DNA of 64,000 nt from the NCBI RefSeq assembly GCF_058153355.1, contig NZ_CM177019.1; one strand, written 5' to 3'. The position numbers and the translations under genes were made by a program. Below are positions 1 to 52,007 of the stretch, piece by piece (the first letter of the stretch is position 1; each line of letters starts with the position of its first letter). Under the pieces are notes generated by a model. That model was not told the DNA's origin. It saw nothing but the letters and a program-made list of their open reading frames with translations, and did no database searches.

Positions 1-2107
1 AAGCAACAAACGCCGCCAGCATCGACGGTACAAAATGCGTGGTCGTTACGCCATATTCAGCAAAGAATTGCTGCATAGCGAGCGGATCGCGGTGCGCTTC
101 CGGTTCAGCCATCACCAGTTTCGCCCCGGCAATAAACGGCCAGAAAAACTCCCACACCGAGACATCAAAACTGCACGGCGTTTTTTGGGCAACAACATCT
201 TCGCCTGTGAGCGGGTAGTGGTTTTGCATCCATAATAGGCGGTTAACGATAGCCGTCTGCCCGACCATCACCCCTTTCGGCCTGCCGGTGGAACCGGAGG
301 TGAAGATGATATAAGCCGTGTGGTGCGGTTGTGAAAGTTGCAGCGGCGCACTGACCTGCGGTGTAAGCGGGGCGTTATAGCAAAGACTGGTTAAATTGGG
401 GATATCGCTAAAGCGCGGCAGTTGATCATCGGTGGTGATTAACAGTGACGGACGCGCATCTTCCAGCATCATTTTCAGGCGATCGTCTGGATAGCCCGTA
501 TCCAGCGGTAGCCAGGCCGCACCAGCTTCAACTATCGCATGTAGCGCCATAGTCAAAAAGACCGAGCGCGGTAGTGCCACCGCTACGCTGTCGCCAGGTT
601 TAACGCCGCGCTCACGCAGCAGATTCGCCAGCGCCACCACCTGCTCGCGCATTTCCCGATAACTGAACTGGTAACGCACATCTGCCAGTGCCGGAGCATC
701 CGGCGTTTTTGCCGCCTGTTCTGCCACCAGCGCGCTCAGTGTGGTTTCTGGAATCTCAACCTGAGTGGCGTTGATCTGCGCCAGCTGTGCATACTCTTCT
801 GGCAGCAGAATATCGACATCGCCGCACAACCGCGCCGGATCCGCGGCAAACTGCGCCGTCAGCATTTTCAGCCGTTCAGCATGCTTGATTAACGTTGGCT
901 CATCGTAACGCTGTTTATTGGCGAGGATCTCAATACTCAAATCACCGTTTTCATCCGGGAAAAGGGCCAGTTCAAGGTCATTAACCGGACCGGTTGCCAG
1001 GGTATGGGTTTGCGCCTGTACCCCCGGAATATCTAACTGATAATCAAATACTTTAATATTGAGCACCGGACCGAACAGCGGTTCCTCTCCCGCCGCGCGC
1101 CCGCTGTCACGGACAATTTGTTCGGCATCGTAACGTTGATGACGACGCATTTTTTTCAGTTGTGCCGCTAGTCGTGCTGCCAGTTGCGGCAATGTTTCTT
1201 GTGCCTCAATGTGAATACCCAACGGCAACACGTTGAGCACGGGTCCGGTAGCCGTCAGCGCCGCTGAGCCCAGTCGACGCATAAAGATAAATCCGGCGGC
1301 GTAGTCCATGCGGTTGCACAATCGCCCCAGCCACAAAGCCGCCAGCGCAAGGGCTATATCGGTACGTTGTACACCTGAAAGTTGCGTAGCCAACTGGCGG
1401 AATTCCCCGCCGTTAAATTCCAGTTTCAGACGCAAAATATCTGCCGAGGCGCTGCGCCCTGGTAAAGGGGCCGGAGAAAGTGACGCGGGCGGTGGTAGTT
1501 GACGACGCTGTTCCGCCCAGAATGCCGCATCACGCTGCCAGGCTTCGCTTTCGCGGTACTGCTGGTACTCTTCCACGACATCAGCGAAAGGCGTAAACGG
1601 CGAAGCAGGCGTTGGTTCGCCACACCCCCATGCACAGTAAATGTTGGCGATCTGGCGGGTAATGACCGGGAAACTGAAGCCATCGACCAGCAAATGGTGG
1701 TAACGCTGATACCAGTACCAGCGGTTATCTGCCACCTGTATCAGTTGATGAAAAACCAGAGGTTTACCGCTATCGACGCGCAGATCTTGTTGCAAATCCG
1801 CCTGCATTAATGCCTGCGCAGTACCGTGCGGATCAATGTTGGTTCGCAGGTCGATAATTTCTGGCAGTTCGAACGTCAGCGCATCATCGACCCATTGCCA
1901 GACTTCGCCGTTATCTTCCGTAAAACGCATCCGCAGCGTATCTGCTTGCGCTAATCCGGCAACCACCGCGCGAGCCAGTAATGGCGCATCAACATCTCCG
2001 GTTAACTCAACGTAATGCGCCACGCTCCAGGCGGAGGGTAAATCCGACAGTTTTTCTGCCATCCAGATGCCGGGCTGTGCGGCAACTAAAGGTAAATGCT
2101 GGCTCAT
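1..2107 (-). CDS. entF: Enterobactin non-ribosomal peptide synthetase EntF, N-terminal ~700 aa (condensation domain and start of adenylation domain); gene runs off the window edge
   Basis: Minus-strand reading frame open from 2107 to position 1 with no stop; translation begins MSQHLPLVAAQPGIWMAEKL, matching EntF as recalled. ATG overlaps the ybdZ stop (ATGA). Not in the ORF track because it is truncated by the window. Confidence 0.92.
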   Translation of the reverse strand, partial: MSQHLPLVAAQPGIWMAEKLSDLPSAWSVAHYVELTGDVDAPLLARAVVAGLAQADTLRMRFTEDNGEVWQWVDDALTFELPEIIDLRTNIDPHGTAQALMQADLQQDLRVDSGKPLVFHQLIQVADNRWYWYQRYHHLLVDGFSFPVITRQIANIYCAWGCGEPTPASPFTPFADVVEEYQQYRESEAWQRDAAFWAEQRRQLPPPASLSPAPLPGRSASADILRLKLEFNGGEFRQLATQLSGVQRTDIALALAALWLGRLCNRMDYAAGFIFMRRLGSAALTATGPVLNVLPLGIHIEAQETLPQLAARLAAQLKKMRRHQRYDAEQIVRDSGRAAGEEPLFGPVLNIKVFDYQLDIPGVQAQTHTLATGPVNDLELALFPDENGDLSIEILANKQRYDEPTLIKHAERLKMLTAQFAADPARLCGDVDILLPEEYAQLAQINATQVEIPETTLSALVAEQAAKTPDAPALADVRYQFSYREMREQVVALANLLRERGVKPGDSVAVALPRSVFLTMALHAIVEAGAAWLPLDTGYPDDRLKMMLEDARPSLLITTDDQLPRFSDIPNLTSLCYNAPLTPQVSAPLQLSQPHHTAYIIFTSGSTGRPKGVMVGQTAIVNRLLWMQNHYPLTGEDVVAQKTPCSFDVSVWEFFWPFIAGAKLVMAEPEAHRDPLAMQQFFAEYGVTTTHFVPSMLAAFVA

Positions 2108-2322
2108 TGCGCCTCCTGCTGCTGGATGAAATTCGCCGGTGTCAGAGTACGCCAGTGGGCGTCCAGCCACTGCTGGCAGGACGCCTGTGACTGCGGCTGA
2201 CACACAACATCCCAGCCTGCCGGTAAGGCGCACTGTTGCGGCCACAGACTGAATTGCCCCTGCGCATTGCGTAAAATGTAAAACACGCCCTGCGGATCAT
2301 CGAAGGGATTACTGAATGCCAT
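2104..2322 (-). CDS. ybdZ: MbtH-like protein YbdZ (enterobactin synthesis accessory protein), 72 aa
   Basis: ORF track 2104..2328; internal ATG at 2322 gives MAFSNPFDDPQGVFYILRN, the recalled YbdZ N-terminus; position between fes and entF. Confidence 0.9.
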   Translation of the reverse strand: MAFSNPFDDPQGVFYILRNAQGQFSLWPQQCALPAGWDVVCQPQSQASCQQWLDAHWRTLTPANFIQQQEAQ

Positions 2323-2324
2323 AT

Positions 2325-3527
2325 TCAACTCCTGTCATGGAAAAGTGGTTGCCAGAGGTCGATTAGCCCCTGCATCAAGCCACCGCGCCAACAAAGCGCA
2401 TCATGTCCGCCGTCAACCTGACGCCAGAAAATGGATTCTTTTAGGGGGGCTAATTGCGCATACAGCGCCTGATTGGCCCGCATGATCATCGGCTCGCGAA
2501 GACCCGCTTCCAGCACAATGCGCAGACCTTCGGCGCTAACTTCACCAGCTTTGAGCTGTTCAAGTAACACGCCCTCTTGCTGCCCGCCCCGATGCGGCCA
2601 CCAGTACGATCCCGACTGGCTTAATACACAGCCAAAGCGTTCAGGCCAGTGCAGTCCGGCATACAGCGCGGAAAGTCCACCAAAACTCTGCCCTGCGACC
2701 ACGGTGCGATCGGCGTGATCGCTAAAGGGGGCGATAGTTTTCACCTGGGGTAATAACTCTTGCTGTACTGCCAGCCAGAAATCCGCATTACACGGCAGTT
2801 CGTGGGCACGTTGCGTGGTGTCGATAGCGTCGATCAACACGTACACGGCGGGAGGAAGTTGCTGACGATGGGTCAACGAAGTCAGCACAGGCCAGACGGG
2901 CATACTCTGCGCCCAAAATTCGCCATCAAGTAAAACTGCCAGCGGACGTTCTTCTGCTGTTGCATCGCCGGTGGTAAAAATCCATACACGGCGTGAATTT
3001 TTCAACCGTTCACTTTTCCAGATAATTTCTTTGGCAGGCGTTTCTGGCGCTTGCGGACAATCCCATCCTGGTTGCAGGGGCGCTTGCGGCATTTCGAGTG
3101 CAGAAACAGCGTGCCCTCGCCCGCCTTTCCAGCTTTGTGGATTTAGCGGATCGGCTATCGCCTGGGGTAATAGTTTTCGCCAGCCTTCGCGCAATTCGAG
3201 GCGATCAGGTGATGGTGCAGAAAAAATGTCATCACGTTCGGTAGGAATAAAACAGTAGCTGCCGCGCCAGTTGGCATTGAGTTGTGTCGTCCACTGCCAG
3301 ACATCGGTCCCTGCAATTCGCTGCATCGACTGGGGCTGGCTGTTCTGATGGTGATCGGTCACGCCAGTGATATAGACCCATACGCGCTTTATCGTCGAGT
3401 GGTCTTCAGAACCTTGTGGATCACGCCACCAGAAAGTGACCTGATACATTTCGTCATTCAGACGCTGACATTCCGGGCCATGTTTCGACTGCCACCAGCT
3501 CTCACTTCCTACTTTTAACGCCGTCAC
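2325..3527 (-). CDS. fes: Enterochelin (ferric enterobactin) esterase Fes
   Basis: 400-aa ORF starting MTALKVGSESWWQSKHGPE; contains esterase motif GQSFGG; divergent from fepA across a Fur-box region. Exact start not verified. Confidence 0.93.
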   Translation of the reverse strand: MTALKVGSESWWQSKHGPECQRLNDEMYQVTFWWRDPQGSEDHSTIKRVWVYITGVTDHHQNSQPQSMQRIAGTDVWQWTTQLNANWRGSYCFIPTERDDIFSAPSPDRLELREGWRKLLPQAIADPLNPQSWKGGRGHAVSALEMPQAPLQPGWDCPQAPETPAKEIIWKSERLKNSRRVWIFTTGDATAEERPLAVLLDGEFWAQSMPVWPVLTSLTHRQQLPPAVYVLIDAIDTTQRAHELPCNADFWLAVQQELLPQVKTIAPFSDHADRTVVAGQSFGGLSALYAGLHWPERFGCVLSQSGSYWWPHRGGQQEGVLLEQLKAGEVSAEGLRIVLEAGLREPMIMRANQALYAQLAPLKESIFWRQVDGGHDALCWRGGLMQGLIDLWQPLFHDRS

Positions 3528-6184: not shown

Positions 6185-6805
6185 ATGAAAACTACGCATA
6201 CCTCCCTCCCCTTTGCCGGACATACGCTGCATTTTGTTGAGTTCGATCCAGTAAATTTTCGCGAGCAGGATTTACTCTGGCTGCCACACTACGCACAACT
6301 GCAACACGCTGGACGTAAACGTAAAACAGAGCATTTAGCCGGACGGATCGCTGCTGTTTACGCCTTGCGGGAATATGGCTATAAATGTGTGCCCGCAATC
6401 GGCGAGCTACGCCAACCTGTGTGGCCTGCGGAGGTATACGGCAGTATTAGCCACTGCGGGACTACAGCATTAGCCGTGGTATCTCGTCAACCGATTGGCA
6501 TTGATATCGAAGAGATTTTCTCTGTACAAACCGCAAGAGAATTGACAGACAACATTATTACACCAGCAGAACACGAGCGACTCGCAGAATGCGGTTTAAC
6601 CTTTTCTCTGGCGCTGACACTGGCATTTTCCGCCAAAGAGAGCGCATTTAAGGAAAGCAAGATACAGGCCGCTCAAGGTTTTCTGGGTTATCAGATAATT
6701 AGCTGGAATAAACAGCAGATCATCATTCGACTAGAGGATGAGCAGTTTGCTGTGCACTGGCAGATAAAAGAAAAAATAGTCATAACGCTGTGCCAACACG
6801 ATTAA
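6185..6805 (+). CDS. entD: Enterobactin synthase phosphopantetheinyl transferase EntD, 206 aa
   Basis: ORF track 6035..6805; ATG at 6185 gives MKTTHTSLPFAGHTLHFVEFDP, the recalled EntD start; downstream of fepA on the same strand. Confidence 0.9.
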   Translation: MKTTHTSLPFAGHTLHFVEFDPVNFREQDLLWLPHYAQLQHAGRKRKTEHLAGRIAAVYALREYGYKCVPAIGELRQPVWPAEVYGSISHCGTTALAVVSRQPIGIDIEEIFSVQTARELTDNIITPAEHERLAECGLTFSLALTLAFSAKESAFKESKIQAAQGFLGYQIISWNKQQIIIRLEDEQFAVHWQIKEKIVITLCQHD

Positions 6806-6825
6806 TTGACAACATCTGGTACGAT

Positions 6826-7290
6826 TCGCCCGCAGCCATCACTGACCACGGGCGAAAGTGTAAAGCAGGTGCCTTACCATCCTGACCTAACAACCGGATA
6901 TGCGGGGATTACTCCCCGCACAACGGCTACTTCTTCGGTTCGTAAGCGAGAACAGCCCTGAACTCAATATTACGTTCCTTTACGGTGAACTCACACAGCG
7001 AGTCGCCGACCAGAAGCGTAAATCCCAGCACTGTCAAACACAGCACTATGACCGCCACAAGGGCATATTTCGTCAGCATGTTTATATTGCCTCCATGCGA
7101 AGAAGGGACTACCATCCAAATTGTCTGGTTTGGAGTGGCGGCCCCAGGGTTGATAGAAATATCTCCTGGGGCTTCATCTTTCCAGACCTCAGAGTAAACC
7201 TGAAACCGGAAAGCTTCAGGCACCCGCCGTTATCTTACCCTTCCTTAGCAAAATGGCTGTTTATTTATACAGTGAGTCCTGTTTCGGACT
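6826..7290. repeat. Tandem repeat unit 1 of a hok/sok-type locus (~465 bp)
   Basis: Near-identical to 7328..7792 at an offset of 502 bp (direct tandem duplication with a few substitutions). Confidence 0.85.
6927..7079 (-). CDS. Hok-family type I toxin (membrane peptide), 50 aa, tandem copy 1
   Basis: C-terminal 50 aa of minus ORF 6927..7223: [50 protein letters not shown]; Hok/Gef family signature. Confidence 0.8.
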
Positions 7291-7327
7291 TCTGTTGGCA
7301 AAACTGATCATTGCCCTTAAAACGACA

Positions 7328-7792
7328 TCGCCCGCAGCCATCACTGACCGCGGGCGAAAGTGTAAAGCAGGTGCCTTACCATCCTGACCTGACAACCGGA
7401 TATGCGGGGATTACTCCCCGCACAACGGCTACTTCTTCGGTTCGTAAGCGAGAACAGCCTTAAACTCAATATTACGTTCCTTTACGGTGAACTCACACAG
7501 CGAGTCGCCGACAAGAAGCGTAAATCCCAGCACCGTCAAACACAGCACTATGACTGCCACAAAGGCATATTTCGTCAGCATGTTTATATTGCCTCCATGC
7601 GAAGAAGGGACTACCATCCAAATTGTTCGGGTTTGGAGTGGCAGCCCCAGGGTTGATAGAAATATCTCCTGGGGCTTCATCTTCCAGACCTCAGAGTAAA
7701 CCTGAAACCGGAAAGCTTCAGGCACCCGCCGTTATCTTACCCTTCCTTAGCAAAATAGCTGTTTATTTATACAGTTGGTCTTATTTCGGACT
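7328..7792. repeat. Tandem repeat unit 2 of a hok/sok-type locus (~465 bp)
   Basis: Direct repeat of 6826..7290. Confidence 0.85.
7429..7581 (-). CDS. hokE: Hok-family type I toxin HokE-like, 50 aa, tandem copy 2 (adjacent to ybdK)
   Basis: [50 protein letters not shown]; position next to ybdK matches the hokE locus of K-12. Confidence 0.8.
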
Positions 7793-8023
7793 TCTCACTA
7801 CGCATTAGATCAACCGAAACTAAGCCAGTTTTTCCTTCGCCCCTCAATCGTCAAAATTCTCCGCCGCCAGCCAGCTCTGCCATAACCTGGCACATTGCAA
7901 AAGTAGCCAAATTGCTTCAGTAGCAATCAGTTCACCATCACCAAAAAAAAAGAAACATTCCAGAACTTCCGCATCTCCCCCGGCCGCTCCCACTTCTATA
8001 CTGAAATGAAAACGCCAACATAA

Positions 8024-9151
<1,128 letters not shown>

Positions 9152-43584: not shown

Positions 43585-43790
43585 CCTGCCGGATGCGGCG
43601 TGAACGCCTTATCCGGCCTACTAATCCGGTACCCATTGTAGGCCTGATAAGAGGCGTCAAGCGTCGCATCAGGCATGGTGCGCCGATTACCGGATGCGGC
43701 GTGAACGCCTTATCCGACTACCAATCCGGTACCCATTGTAGGCCTGATAAGAGGCGTCAAGCGTCGCATCAGGCATGGTGCGCCATATGC
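43585..43790. repeat. BIME/REP cluster: two ~100-bp direct repeats each containing inverted REP elements
   Basis: ccggatgcggcgtgaacgccttatccg...gtaggcctgataagaggcgtcaagcgtcgcatcaggcatggtgcgcc occurs twice in tandem between convergent purK and ybcF. Confidence 0.75.
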
Positions 43791-51877: not shown

Positions 51878-52007
51878 GTCATACCACTCGCCTGATTATT
51901 TTTAGCTATGTTGGATTTTGCCACGGTTTATACCGTGGCTTTTTTTTTGTAGTCAATTCAGGTAAAAAAAGATGCGATATAAATCGCATCCGCTTTAAAG
52001 GTAAGAG

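Follow-up and report, generated by a model that had tools for sequence, protein, structure and literature searches.

The locus described here lies between entD and ybdK on an Escherichia coli chromosome and consists of two head-to-tail units, each with a small toxin gene on the minus strand. All positions refer to the window, which is the whole stretch of 64,000 nt that was analysed. The two units have a length of 468 bp each and are 96-97% identical according to the repeat finder and the pairwise alignment:

6826..7293, minus strand: unit a, complete hokE/sokE module, entD-proximal (direct-repeat families D1-D3, pairwise alignment)
7294..7327, no strand: inter-unit spacer of 34 nt, together with the adjoining unit ends a marker of the tandem state (unrepeated within the window)
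7328..7795, minus strand: unit b, complete hokE/sokE module, ybdK-proximal (repeat finder and alignment)
6927..7079, minus strand: hokE-a coding sequence, 50 aa and stop, L7/R41 variant (ORF, Pfam PF01848)
7429..7581, minus strand: hokE-b coding sequence, 50 aa and stop, F7/K41 variant (ORF, exact protein WP_176225438.1)

The repeat finder returned three collinear direct-repeat blocks, namely 6826-7125 versus 7328-7627 (97%), 7124-7180 versus 7627-7683 (96%) and 7180-7293 versus 7682-7795 (96%). The offset from unit to unit is 502 or 503 nt, with two single-base indels between them, in agreement with the original prediction of two repeat units at an offset of 502 bp. This is far beyond a chance repeat. 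That the units encode 50-aa toxins on the minus strand differing by L/F at residue 7 and R/K at residue 41 had also been predicted, and the ORF translations agree exactly, since L7F and R41K are the only differences between the two proteins. In the transcribed 400 nt, 13 positions differ between the units. Among the sampled units, the deletion of A45 and L7F are private to copy b.

The hokE protein matches the Pfam family HOK_GEF (PF01848) over the entire model (positions 1-42 of 42, residues 5-46, E=3.9e-8, 33.2 bits). At NCBI, each of the two sequences has an identical entry under the name 'type I toxin-antitoxin system toxin HokE', HokE-a being seen on at least 1000 contigs and HokE-b on 3 contigs only. 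The NCBIfam scores were below the curated cut-offs, with 49.0 and 46.8 bits for the HokA equivalog NF007290 (cut-off 89) and 39.5 bits for the Hok subfamily model NF007279 (cut-off 73). Since this search gave no HokE-specific model, the sub-threshold scores are no argument against HokE. At the level of RNA, the Rfam model RF01794 (gathering score 59) was matched on the hok-sense strand over its full length with 83.9 bits for unit a and 76.4 bits for unit b, and the gene order fepA-entD-hokE-ybdK is maintained. The assignment of both units as hok/sok-type loci is supported by these matches. The predicted elements of the two hok mRNAs are as follows:

6826..7225, minus strand: predicted full-length hokE-a mRNA, 400 nt (Rfam match begins at 7225)
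7328..7727, minus strand: predicted full-length hokE-b mRNA, 400 nt (Rfam match begins at 7727)
7071..7225, minus strand: hok-a leader with tac element, ucb hairpin, Sok-target hairpin and hok Shine-Dalgarno sequence (RF01794 model positions 1-157)
7573..7727, minus strand: hok-b leader (RF01794)
7218..7225, minus strand: tac-like 5' element of hokE-a, GGGUGCCU (pairs with mRNA nt 352-359)
6867..6874, minus strand: fbi-like 3' element of hokE-a, AGGCACCU (fold; retained in the 30-allele consensus fold)
7720..7727, minus strand: tac-like element of hokE-b (fold)
7369..7376, minus strand: fbi-like element of hokE-b (fold)
6826..6856, minus strand: 3'-terminal GC-rich hairpin of hokE-a, with no U-tract after it (fold, inverted-repeat arm)
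7328..7357, minus strand: 3'-terminal hairpin of hokE-b, followed by UGUCGUUUUA (the sole terminator-like site in the scan)

The 5' ends of the mRNAs are predicted, as they were placed by alignment to position 1 of the Rfam model. For the hokE-a mRNA we calculated a minimum free energy (MFE) of -172.3 kcal/mol, which corresponds to z = -7.28 when compared to shuffled sequences, and the hokE-b mRNA shows the same fold architecture. In the MFE and centroid structures of both mRNAs, nt 1-8 are paired with nt 352-359. The consensus structure calculated from 30 alleles retains this pairing, which places the fbi-like site approximately 45 nt from the mRNA 3' end. Because the tac and fbi pairs are almost invariant across the 30 alleles, covariation speaks neither for nor against this pairing. 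When folded alone, the first 150 nt form a 5'-proximal hairpin sequestering the tac element, which resembles the metastable structure of plasmid R1. In each unit, a GGAGG Shine-Dalgarno sequence precedes an intact Hok ORF. A consensus scan of 6700-8050 revealed no sigma-70-like site with at least 9 of 12 matches, and a terminator for copy b only; the sole candidate for a hok promoter is a -10-like TAAGAT. The upstream AUGs, one at nt 49 and one at nt 111, do not vary among the alleles. The frame opened at nt 49 is a uORF of 22 codons in copy a, whereas in copy b it gives an 83-aa fusion in frame, and in other alleles an out-of-frame overlap of 62 codons. A mok gene was searched by homology to R1, and at the R1-equivalent position a start codon is missing.

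On the opposite strand a Sok antisense gene is predicted in each unit, and a LexA box core is located upstream of each hok gene:

7087..7115, plus strand: predicted Sok-a promoter, TTGCCT-17-TACCAT (pattern search; 8/12 match, under the 9/12 of the scan)
7589..7617, plus strand: predicted Sok-b promoter, 29-mer identical to that of copy a (pattern search)
7121..7182, plus strand: predicted Sok-a RNA of approximately 62 nt, with an 11-nt single-stranded 5' tail, a hairpin and a U-rich tail (fold, -24.1 kcal/mol)
7623..7684, plus strand: predicted Sok-b RNA (fold and complementarity)
7257..7272, no strand: LexA box core CTGT-N8-ACAG upstream of hokE-a (pattern match)
7759..7774, no strand: LexA box core upstream of hokE-b (pattern match)

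The predicted Sok-a is complementary to nt 44-105 of the hok-a mRNA. For the K-12 ybdK/sokE region, the same promoter hexamers were reported under an RpoD-SELEX peak, and our promoter assignment is based on the 8/12 match together with this independent report. The motif CTGT-N8-ACAG has two perfect matches in the whole 64-kb window, one per unit, while 0.69 are expected by chance. The literature lists hokE in the LexA regulon, with a known SOS box, and each of the two units carries a box that would qualify it for the LexA (SOS) regulon. The original prediction had considered that one copy could be a dead remnant lacking the elements for its expression. In both copies, however, we found the ORF, the Shine-Dalgarno sequence, the promoter-proximal DNA, the LexA box, the fold-back, the 3' hairpin and the predicted promoter and terminator of Sok to be retained.

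[quoted passage not shown] They differ from R1 in that the nucleotide identity is only approximately 44% (190 of 435 columns in a global alignment), the leader is 27 nt shorter, an AUG at the R1 mok position is absent, and the modules are chromosomal and carry a LexA box.

To describe the distribution of the tandem arrangement, a 63-nt query across the spacer (7280-7342) was used. It was found in 2400 of 5426 complete E. coli genomes (approximately 44%). Three divergent Escherichia lineages, namely E. whittamii, Escherichia sp. MOD1-EC7003 and strain SCPM-O-B-8794, also have a tandem at this position between entD and ybdK. All tandem arrays that we examined, in E. coli as in the other species, share a homologous 34-nt junction, whose sequence could not be traced to the flanks that single-copy loci have today. 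The exact haplotype of the window is absent from the complete-genome set, the closest sequence of which reaches 96.8% identity over this region. The original prediction that the pair is an old duplication which was kept, and no artefact, is borne out by the junction shared with these complete genomes and with other Escherichia. A false expansion of a single locus into two during assembly has nothing in its favour beyond the general risk at repeats; the 13 differences in the transcribed part, additional differences in the promoter-distal region, the unique spacer and the wide occurrence of the same junction make it practically negligible as an explanation.

The tandem hokE pair is already known, being annotated in databases and mentioned in published work. 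RefSeq annotates the locus as hokE (x2), and also as x3, and in the literature a 'hok-2.2, duplication of hok-2.1 (hokE)' was described for the AIEC strain NRG857c. The tandem hokE of O157:H7 Xuzhou21, of AIEC NRG857c and of the RefSeq 'hokE (x2)' entries shares with the window the locus, the period of approximately 502 bp and the homologous 34-nt junction. The pair in the window is the same thing and differs in its allele content alone. Since it is common and already annotated, we consider it as real but ordinary. Its origin is in line with the literature, according to which hok 'islets' arise by local duplication. Adjacent paralogous toxin and antisense units which arose by local duplication are likewise found in ldrABC/rdl, ibs/sib, zorO-orzO/zorP-orzP and the hok islets. 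We also considered that positions a and b represent two clean orthologous lineages. This idea was dropped in favour of mosaic exchange, because position-a and position-b units are mixed in the neighbour-joining tree.

The situation in K-12 is different. In a K-12-type genome we found a single hokE beside an IS4-like IS421-family (IS186) transposase, just as the original prediction had stated. The K-12 hokE/sokE locus lies at the same entD-ybdK site, its unit is approximately 96% identical and encodes the same Hok family protein, and copies a and b share its LexA box core as well as the 29-mer of its Sok promoter. However, K-12 has one unit with IS186 inserted in the 3' UTR hairpin and flanked by a 12-bp target duplication, while the two units of the window are uninterrupted. 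In K-12 the insertion splits the fbi element and the 3' hairpin from the remainder of the unit.

Taken as a whole, the locus very probably comprises two hokE/sokE type I modules side by side, each of them complete, between entD and ybdK on the E. coli chromosome, which go back to one ancient local duplication and vary in copy number (one, two or occasionally three) across E. coli and related Escherichia. Judged from their sequences, both copies look equally competent. By analogy to hok/sok of plasmid R1 and to published work on hokE, transcription would be repressed by LexA and induced upon DNA damage. The fold-back pairing would lock the full-length mRNA against translation, until slow trimming at the 3' end strips the fbi element and allows the leader to refold. 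Two fates would then await the refolded mRNA, namely capture by Sok followed by degradation, or translation via an upstream frame coupled to hok, which would give rise to a membrane-damaging peptide. Editing by TadA, which would change Tyr46 to Cys, may also be required for full toxicity.

Alternatively, one or both copies could be intact in sequence yet not expressed or not toxic, as was once proposed for chromosomal hok genes. In line with this, the mok frame is inconsistent across alleles, copy b encodes a rare protein variant and carries its private 1-nt deletion, and IS186, ISEcp1 and IS150 insertions at the hokE locus are tolerated in many strains. Moreover, deletion of hokE in K-12 was reported to have no persistence phenotype, and hokA, hokB and hokC, according to a summary by citing authors of earlier work, caused neither post-segregational killing nor a response to rifampicin. 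However, the ORF is intact in 30 of 30 sampled units, blocks of 30 to 40 nt are invariant among them, and between Escherichia species the units are better conserved than the neighbouring entD (94-96.6% versus 84-92% identity). Further, the Sok-target hairpin shows compensatory AU to GC changes, and according to a preprint the HokE coding sequence is toxic upon overexpression. We regard inert relics as improbable.

If both modules are active, the question arises whether the two Sok RNAs distinguish between the two hok mRNAs. The regions concerned are:

7108..7140, minus strand: Sok-target hairpin of hokE-a, mRNA nt 86-118, a diversity hotspot (pi, compensatory changes)
7610..7643, minus strand: Sok-target hairpin of hokE-b, approximate coordinates (folds, alignment)
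mRNA nt 97-101, minus strand: stretch discriminating between a and b, ACC-AGACAA in a and ACCCGAACAA in b

One possibility is that both Sok RNAs act on both hok mRNAs, and that the duplication alters only the dosage of an SOS-inducible toxin and its antitoxin. The two predicted Sok RNAs have 57 of approximately 62 positions in common, without any difference in the hairpin or in 11 nt of the tail, and the promoters, LexA boxes and Shine-Dalgarno regions of the two units are identical as well. Duplexes of the Sok tail with the non-cognate target are strongly favourable, with -41.6 and -45.9 kcal/mol versus -56 kcal/mol for the cognate ones. On the other hand, the differences are concentrated in the single-stranded 5' tail and the target loop, and it is at these two elements that binding between Sok and hok of R1 nucleates. 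In the ibs/sib loci, paralogous antitoxins discriminate between their targets. Endogenous chromosomal Sok RNAs were reported to give no protection against R1 hok, showing that the specificity of Sok can be narrow. For zorO/orzO, experiments were reported in which the paralogous antitoxins tell their targets apart, whereas for the hokE pair a discrimination is only suggested by sequence. We consider redundant cross-regulation as less likely than not.

It is also conceivable that each Sok acts efficiently on its own hok mRNA only, because the Sok 5' tail and the target loop have diverged. The co-resident copies would then be functionally orthogonal, and a shared loop allele would be barred by selection on these two elements, which would either be diversifying or counteract their homogenisation through gene conversion. 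In the Sok-target hairpin (columns 86-118) pi is 0.138, compared to an overall mean of 0.038 and to 0.002 in the following 30 nt, and 4 of the 13 differences between a and b fall into the Sok 5' tail of approximately 20 nt. At least ten different loop alleles exist, in a natural series of one, two and three copies, and they are independent of position a or b. The major loop alleles (1122 places in 1120 genomes, 2233 in 2223 and 2336 in 2330) are doubled in less than 1% of their carriers. Pairs that are nearly identical elsewhere may differ in the hairpin, as in L006 with three differences in 369 nt outside and two in 33 nt inside.

In the first test, none of 13 co-resident pairs was identical in the target region, which was not significant (P=0.21). 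Among 17 genomes with more than one copy, co-resident units never had the same loop allele (P=0.014 if alleles assort at random), but the same test on 11 distinct haplotypes gave P=0.085; these P values carry no correction for phylogeny, and in this sequence of results the pattern is suggestive only. A few old, diverged haplotypes with common ancestry could yield the same picture, and the stability of the non-cognate duplexes argues against strict insulation. Further, a cis-antisense pair stays complementary under any mutation, so the target region may simply be weakly constrained. We put orthogonality forward tentatively and consider it rather unlikely. The hairpin pattern may reflect insulated regulation or merely old divergence. 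We found no earlier report of the hotspot and of the near-absence of co-resident copies with the same loop, which we regard as suggestive.

As a feature of the genome, the tandem hokE matters little, since it is a common and annotated copy-number polymorphism of a known locus. It has some modest uses, however. Almost half of the complete E. coli genomes have two intact hokE copies with a LexA box on each, and K-12, with its single and IS186-disrupted copy, is a poor reference for hokE. In work on the SOS response, persistence or toxin knock-outs in strains other than K-12, both copies need to be deleted. Further, the series of one, two and three copies with diverse loop alleles is a ready system for the analysis of cross-talk between cis-antisense RNAs. 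If the copies were indeed orthogonal, the SOS-inducible toxin switches of a genome, two or three in number, would be regulated independently of each other instead of forming a redundant pair, and the hypervariable loop together with the scarcity of same-allele pairs would be the signature of this.

The hokE locus of the window consists of two 468-bp units in head-to-tail orientation, which differ by substitutions and two single-base indels. The repeat finder returned three collinear direct-repeat blocks at an offset of 502/503 (6826-7125 vs 7328-7627, 97% identity; 7124-7180 vs 7627-7683, 96%; 7180-7293 vs 7682-7795, 96%). The pairwise alignment agrees with this and with the original prediction of two such units about 502 bp apart. 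Both of the predicted 50-aa Hok toxins are present in the minus-strand ORF list, with the expected exchanges L7F and R41K between copy a (entD-proximal) and copy b (ybdK-proximal), and the transcribed regions differ at 13 positions only.

6927-7079, minus strand: hokE-a coding sequence, 50 aa
7429-7581, minus strand: hokE-b coding sequence, 50 aa
7294-7327: spacer between the units, 34 nt, present once and not repeated in the pairwise alignment

The array is flanked by fepA and entD on one side and by ybdK, ybdJ, ybdF, nfsB and the cus operon on the other. Since the best complete E. coli genome shows 98.3% identity over 12 kb downstream of the repeat, the window belongs to an E. coli chromosome of a lineage absent from the complete-genome set. 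The Hok protein matches Pfam HOK_GEF over its full length (E=3.9e-8), while an NCBIfam search returned only the HokA and the generic Hok models, both under cut-off. The exact Hok-a and Hok-b sequences exist in NCBI, both under the name "type I toxin-antitoxin system toxin HokE", the former in at least 1000 contigs and the latter, with F7, in 3 contigs only. The interpretation of both units as hok/sok-type modules is thus supported.

The tandem is not an assembly artefact. With a 63-nt query spanning the spacer (7280-7342), matches were obtained in 2400 of 5426 complete E. coli genomes at 2470 places, with at most three per genome. The RefSeq annotation contains two hokE genes for O157:H7 Xuzhou21, among others, and three for strain R32_14_1F. 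The approximately 70 surplus places suggest that dozens of genomes harbor at least three units. When one genome of each GTDB species was scanned, tandem pairs with a homologous spacer were found between entD and ybdK in E. whittamii, Escherichia sp. MOD1-EC7003 and strain SCPM-O-B-8794, and single units in E. albertii and Escherichia sp. E1V33. These between-species pairs and the homologous spacer at a shared site are in line with the proposed old age of the duplication. Moreover, neither copy looks like a dead remnant, a possibility raised at the outset: the ORFs are intact in all 30 distinct aligned units, blocks such as alignment columns 111-160 and 271-300 show practically no variation, and between species the hokE unit is better conserved (94-96.6% identity) than entD (84-92%; ybdK, 91-96%).

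Tandem hokE was already known. For AIEC NRG857c, "Hok-2.1, homologous to hokE" and "Hok-2.2, duplication of hok-2.1" are listed 504 bp apart (PMC7232551), and a 2025-26 bioRxiv survey places 10% of hok genes (13.5% of the chromosomal ones in Escherichia) in islets of 2-6 copies which arose by local duplication. The hokE/sokE pair is therefore common, annotated and published.

K-12-type genomes contain one hokE unit next to an IS186, as stated in the original prediction. The insertion lies in the GGGG-N6-CCCC hairpin of the hok 3' UTR, where unit positions 80-91 (12 bp) are duplicated, so that the fbi element (the pairing element near the mRNA 3' end) and the 3' hairpin are split from the remaining unit. 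The same breakpoint was found in unit b of three hokE loci from other genomes (L027, L029, L030) and also in unit a of L029. The hairpin is a recurrent target of IS186 (IS4-like, IS421 family); other insertions in the locus are ISEcp1 (L007) and IS150 (L023).

6904-6917 and 7406-7419: GGGG-N6-CCCC hairpin (IS186 site) in the window
1573-1663 and 3001-3390 of locus L003: coordinates for the same IS186 insertion site
2047-3520 of locus L004 (E. coli R32_14_1F): three-unit hokE array with three different Sok-target loop alleles and two spacer variants

The outer boundaries of IS-free single-copy loci are exactly those of the tandem, the units did not form position-a and position-b clades, the spacers of the three-copy array are of two different types, and co-resident copies have lineage-private substitutions in common, such as V17A and G25R in both E. 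whittamii copies. Together, these observations suggest an old duplication that has since been reshaped by unequal crossing-over and gene conversion. The array of R32_14_1F is probably the product of an unequal exchange in which two different tandem haplotypes took part. In the E. coli genomes L013, L021 and L022, genes for an SDR-family oxidoreductase and an ABC transporter are located left of the tandem in place of entD, indicating that the adjoining region was rearranged or replaced.

Both units match Rfam RF01794 (gathering score 59). Although this model is named 'sok antitoxin', both of its matches run in the sense direction of hok and stop at the hok start codon; at this locus it thus describes the hok leader and not the antisense RNA. 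Its position 1 was taken as the 5' end of the hok mRNA.

7071-7225, minus strand: RF01794 ("sok") match, unit a, 83.9 bits
7573-7727, minus strand: RF01794 ("sok") match, unit b, 76.4 bits
6826-7225, minus strand: predicted hokE-a mRNA, 400 nt
7328-7727, minus strand: predicted hokE-b mRNA, 400 nt
7087-7115, plus strand: predicted Sok-a promoter, TTGCCT-17-TACCAT
7589-7617, plus strand: predicted Sok-b promoter, TTGCCT-17-TACCAT
7121-7182, plus strand: predicted Sok-a RNA, ~62 nt
7623-7684, plus strand: predicted Sok-b RNA, ~62 nt

The elements expected of a hok mRNA were predicted in both copies. In each MFE structure, nt 1-8 (GGGUGCCU; tac) pair with nt 352-359 (AGGCACCU; fbi), followed by a GC-rich terminal hairpin; the pairing is also present in the centroid, computed for copy a only. 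The MFE of the copy-a mRNA is -172.3 kcal/mol (shuffles, -132.6 +/- 5.5; z = -7.28). This predicted fold-back is shared with plasmid R1 hok mRNA (summarised in PMC9841398), and an R1-type mRNA, retrieved and folded here, adopted the same fold. When folded alone, the first 150 nt give a 5'-proximal hairpin that sequesters tac, matching the "metastable" structure described for R1 (PMC9841398). For the hok promoter, the sole candidate is a -10-like TAAGAT located 7 nt before the assumed start. All 30 alleles have AUGs at nt 49 and nt 111. The frame opened at nt 49 varies: in copy a it is a uORF of 22 codons that stops 29 nt short of hok, in copy b an in-frame fusion of 83 aa, and in other alleles an out-of-frame overlap of 62 codons. 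This leaves the equivalent of mok, the upstream overlapping frame, ambiguous. The bioRxiv survey also found mok prediction not trivial.

The predicted Sok RNA starts ~7 nt downstream of its promoter, is complementary to hok leader nt 44-105, and has a strong hairpin between a single-stranded 5' tail of 11 nt and a U-rich tail. The promoter was missed by a consensus scan because it matches at 8/12 positions only. K-12 has the identical 29-mer, and a ybdK/sokE RpoD-SELEX peak lists the same hexamers (PMC3946193).

The Sok-target hairpin (7108-7140 and about 7610-7643; columns 86-118) is the diversity peak of the whole locus. Among the 30 alleles, pi reaches 0.138 in the hairpin, compared with an overall value of 0.038; it is 0.020 for the remaining 5' UTR and 0.002 for the 30 nt following the hairpin. 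At least 10 loop alleles occur in 35 sampled units, and the ~20-nt Sok tail holds 4 of the 13 differences between copies a and b. Compensatory AU to GC changes in two stem pairs indicate that the hairpin is maintained while the loop and the Sok 5' tail vary. Among 17 genomes with several copies, which represent 11 different allele combinations, no co-resident pair shared a loop allele (P = 0.014 under random assortment, 0.085 after haplotype collapse; 0.21 in a smaller earlier test). Allele-specific 39-40-nt megablast queries for the three commonest alleles matched 1122 places in 1120 genomes, 2233 in 2223 and 2336 in 2330, so each is present twice in <1% of its carriers. This pattern fits selection for orthogonal Sok/hok pairs, a reading which we consider less likely than not. 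It would also be expected if the region is weakly constrained and a few haplotypes that diverged long ago were simply inherited. The predicted non-cognate tail duplexes (-41.6 and -45.9 kcal/mol; cognate, -56 kcal/mol) are still strong. The hotspot and the non-shared alleles are the one aspect that may be new.

Further features were noted in the window.

6942-6944 and 7444-7446: Tyr46 codon UAC within a UACG motif
6900-7307, 6985-7197 and 7402-7656, plus strand: ORFs antisense to the hok leader, of unequal length between units (similar: L009, 1249-1518)
6020-6126: REP-like elements in the fepA-entD gap (Rfam ES036, 44.4 bits, above gathering score; naRNA4 below it)
51884-51950, minus strand: STnc480 sRNA
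30294-30367, minus strand: tRNA (tRNA-Arg by synteny with locus L019)
43641-43719, minus strand: naRNA4

The last three exceed the Rfam gathering scores and are unrelated to hokE. The REP-like elements overlap a long GTG-start ORF extending entD upstream. The 30-nt block around Tyr46 (GCUGUUCUCGCUUACGAACCGAAGAAGUA; columns 271-300), essentially invariant in all 30 alleles, has its UACG also in R1-type hok; this would fit an editing substrate, as a bioRxiv preprint reports A-to-I editing of hokE mRNA by TadA at this codon (Tyr to Cys46). RefSeq/PGAP annotates antisense 'hypothetical protein' ORFs of ~85-90 aa in many genomes, often flagged for frameshifts or internal stops; these appear to be spurious predictions on top of the hok/sok RNA region.

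Finally, each unit contains one perfect LexA-box core CTGT-N8-ACAG, which reads CTGTATAAATAAACAG on the hok strand; the 64-kb window has no further match.

7257-7272: LexA-box core, unit a
7759-7774: LexA-box core, unit b

That hokE belongs to the known SOS genes, with an SOS box already described, was not mentioned in the original prediction. By analogy to R1 hok/sok and from the membership of hokE in the SOS regulon, the pair would act as two SOS-inducible hok/sok modules, and the duplication would mean the doubling of an SOS-inducible toxin gene.
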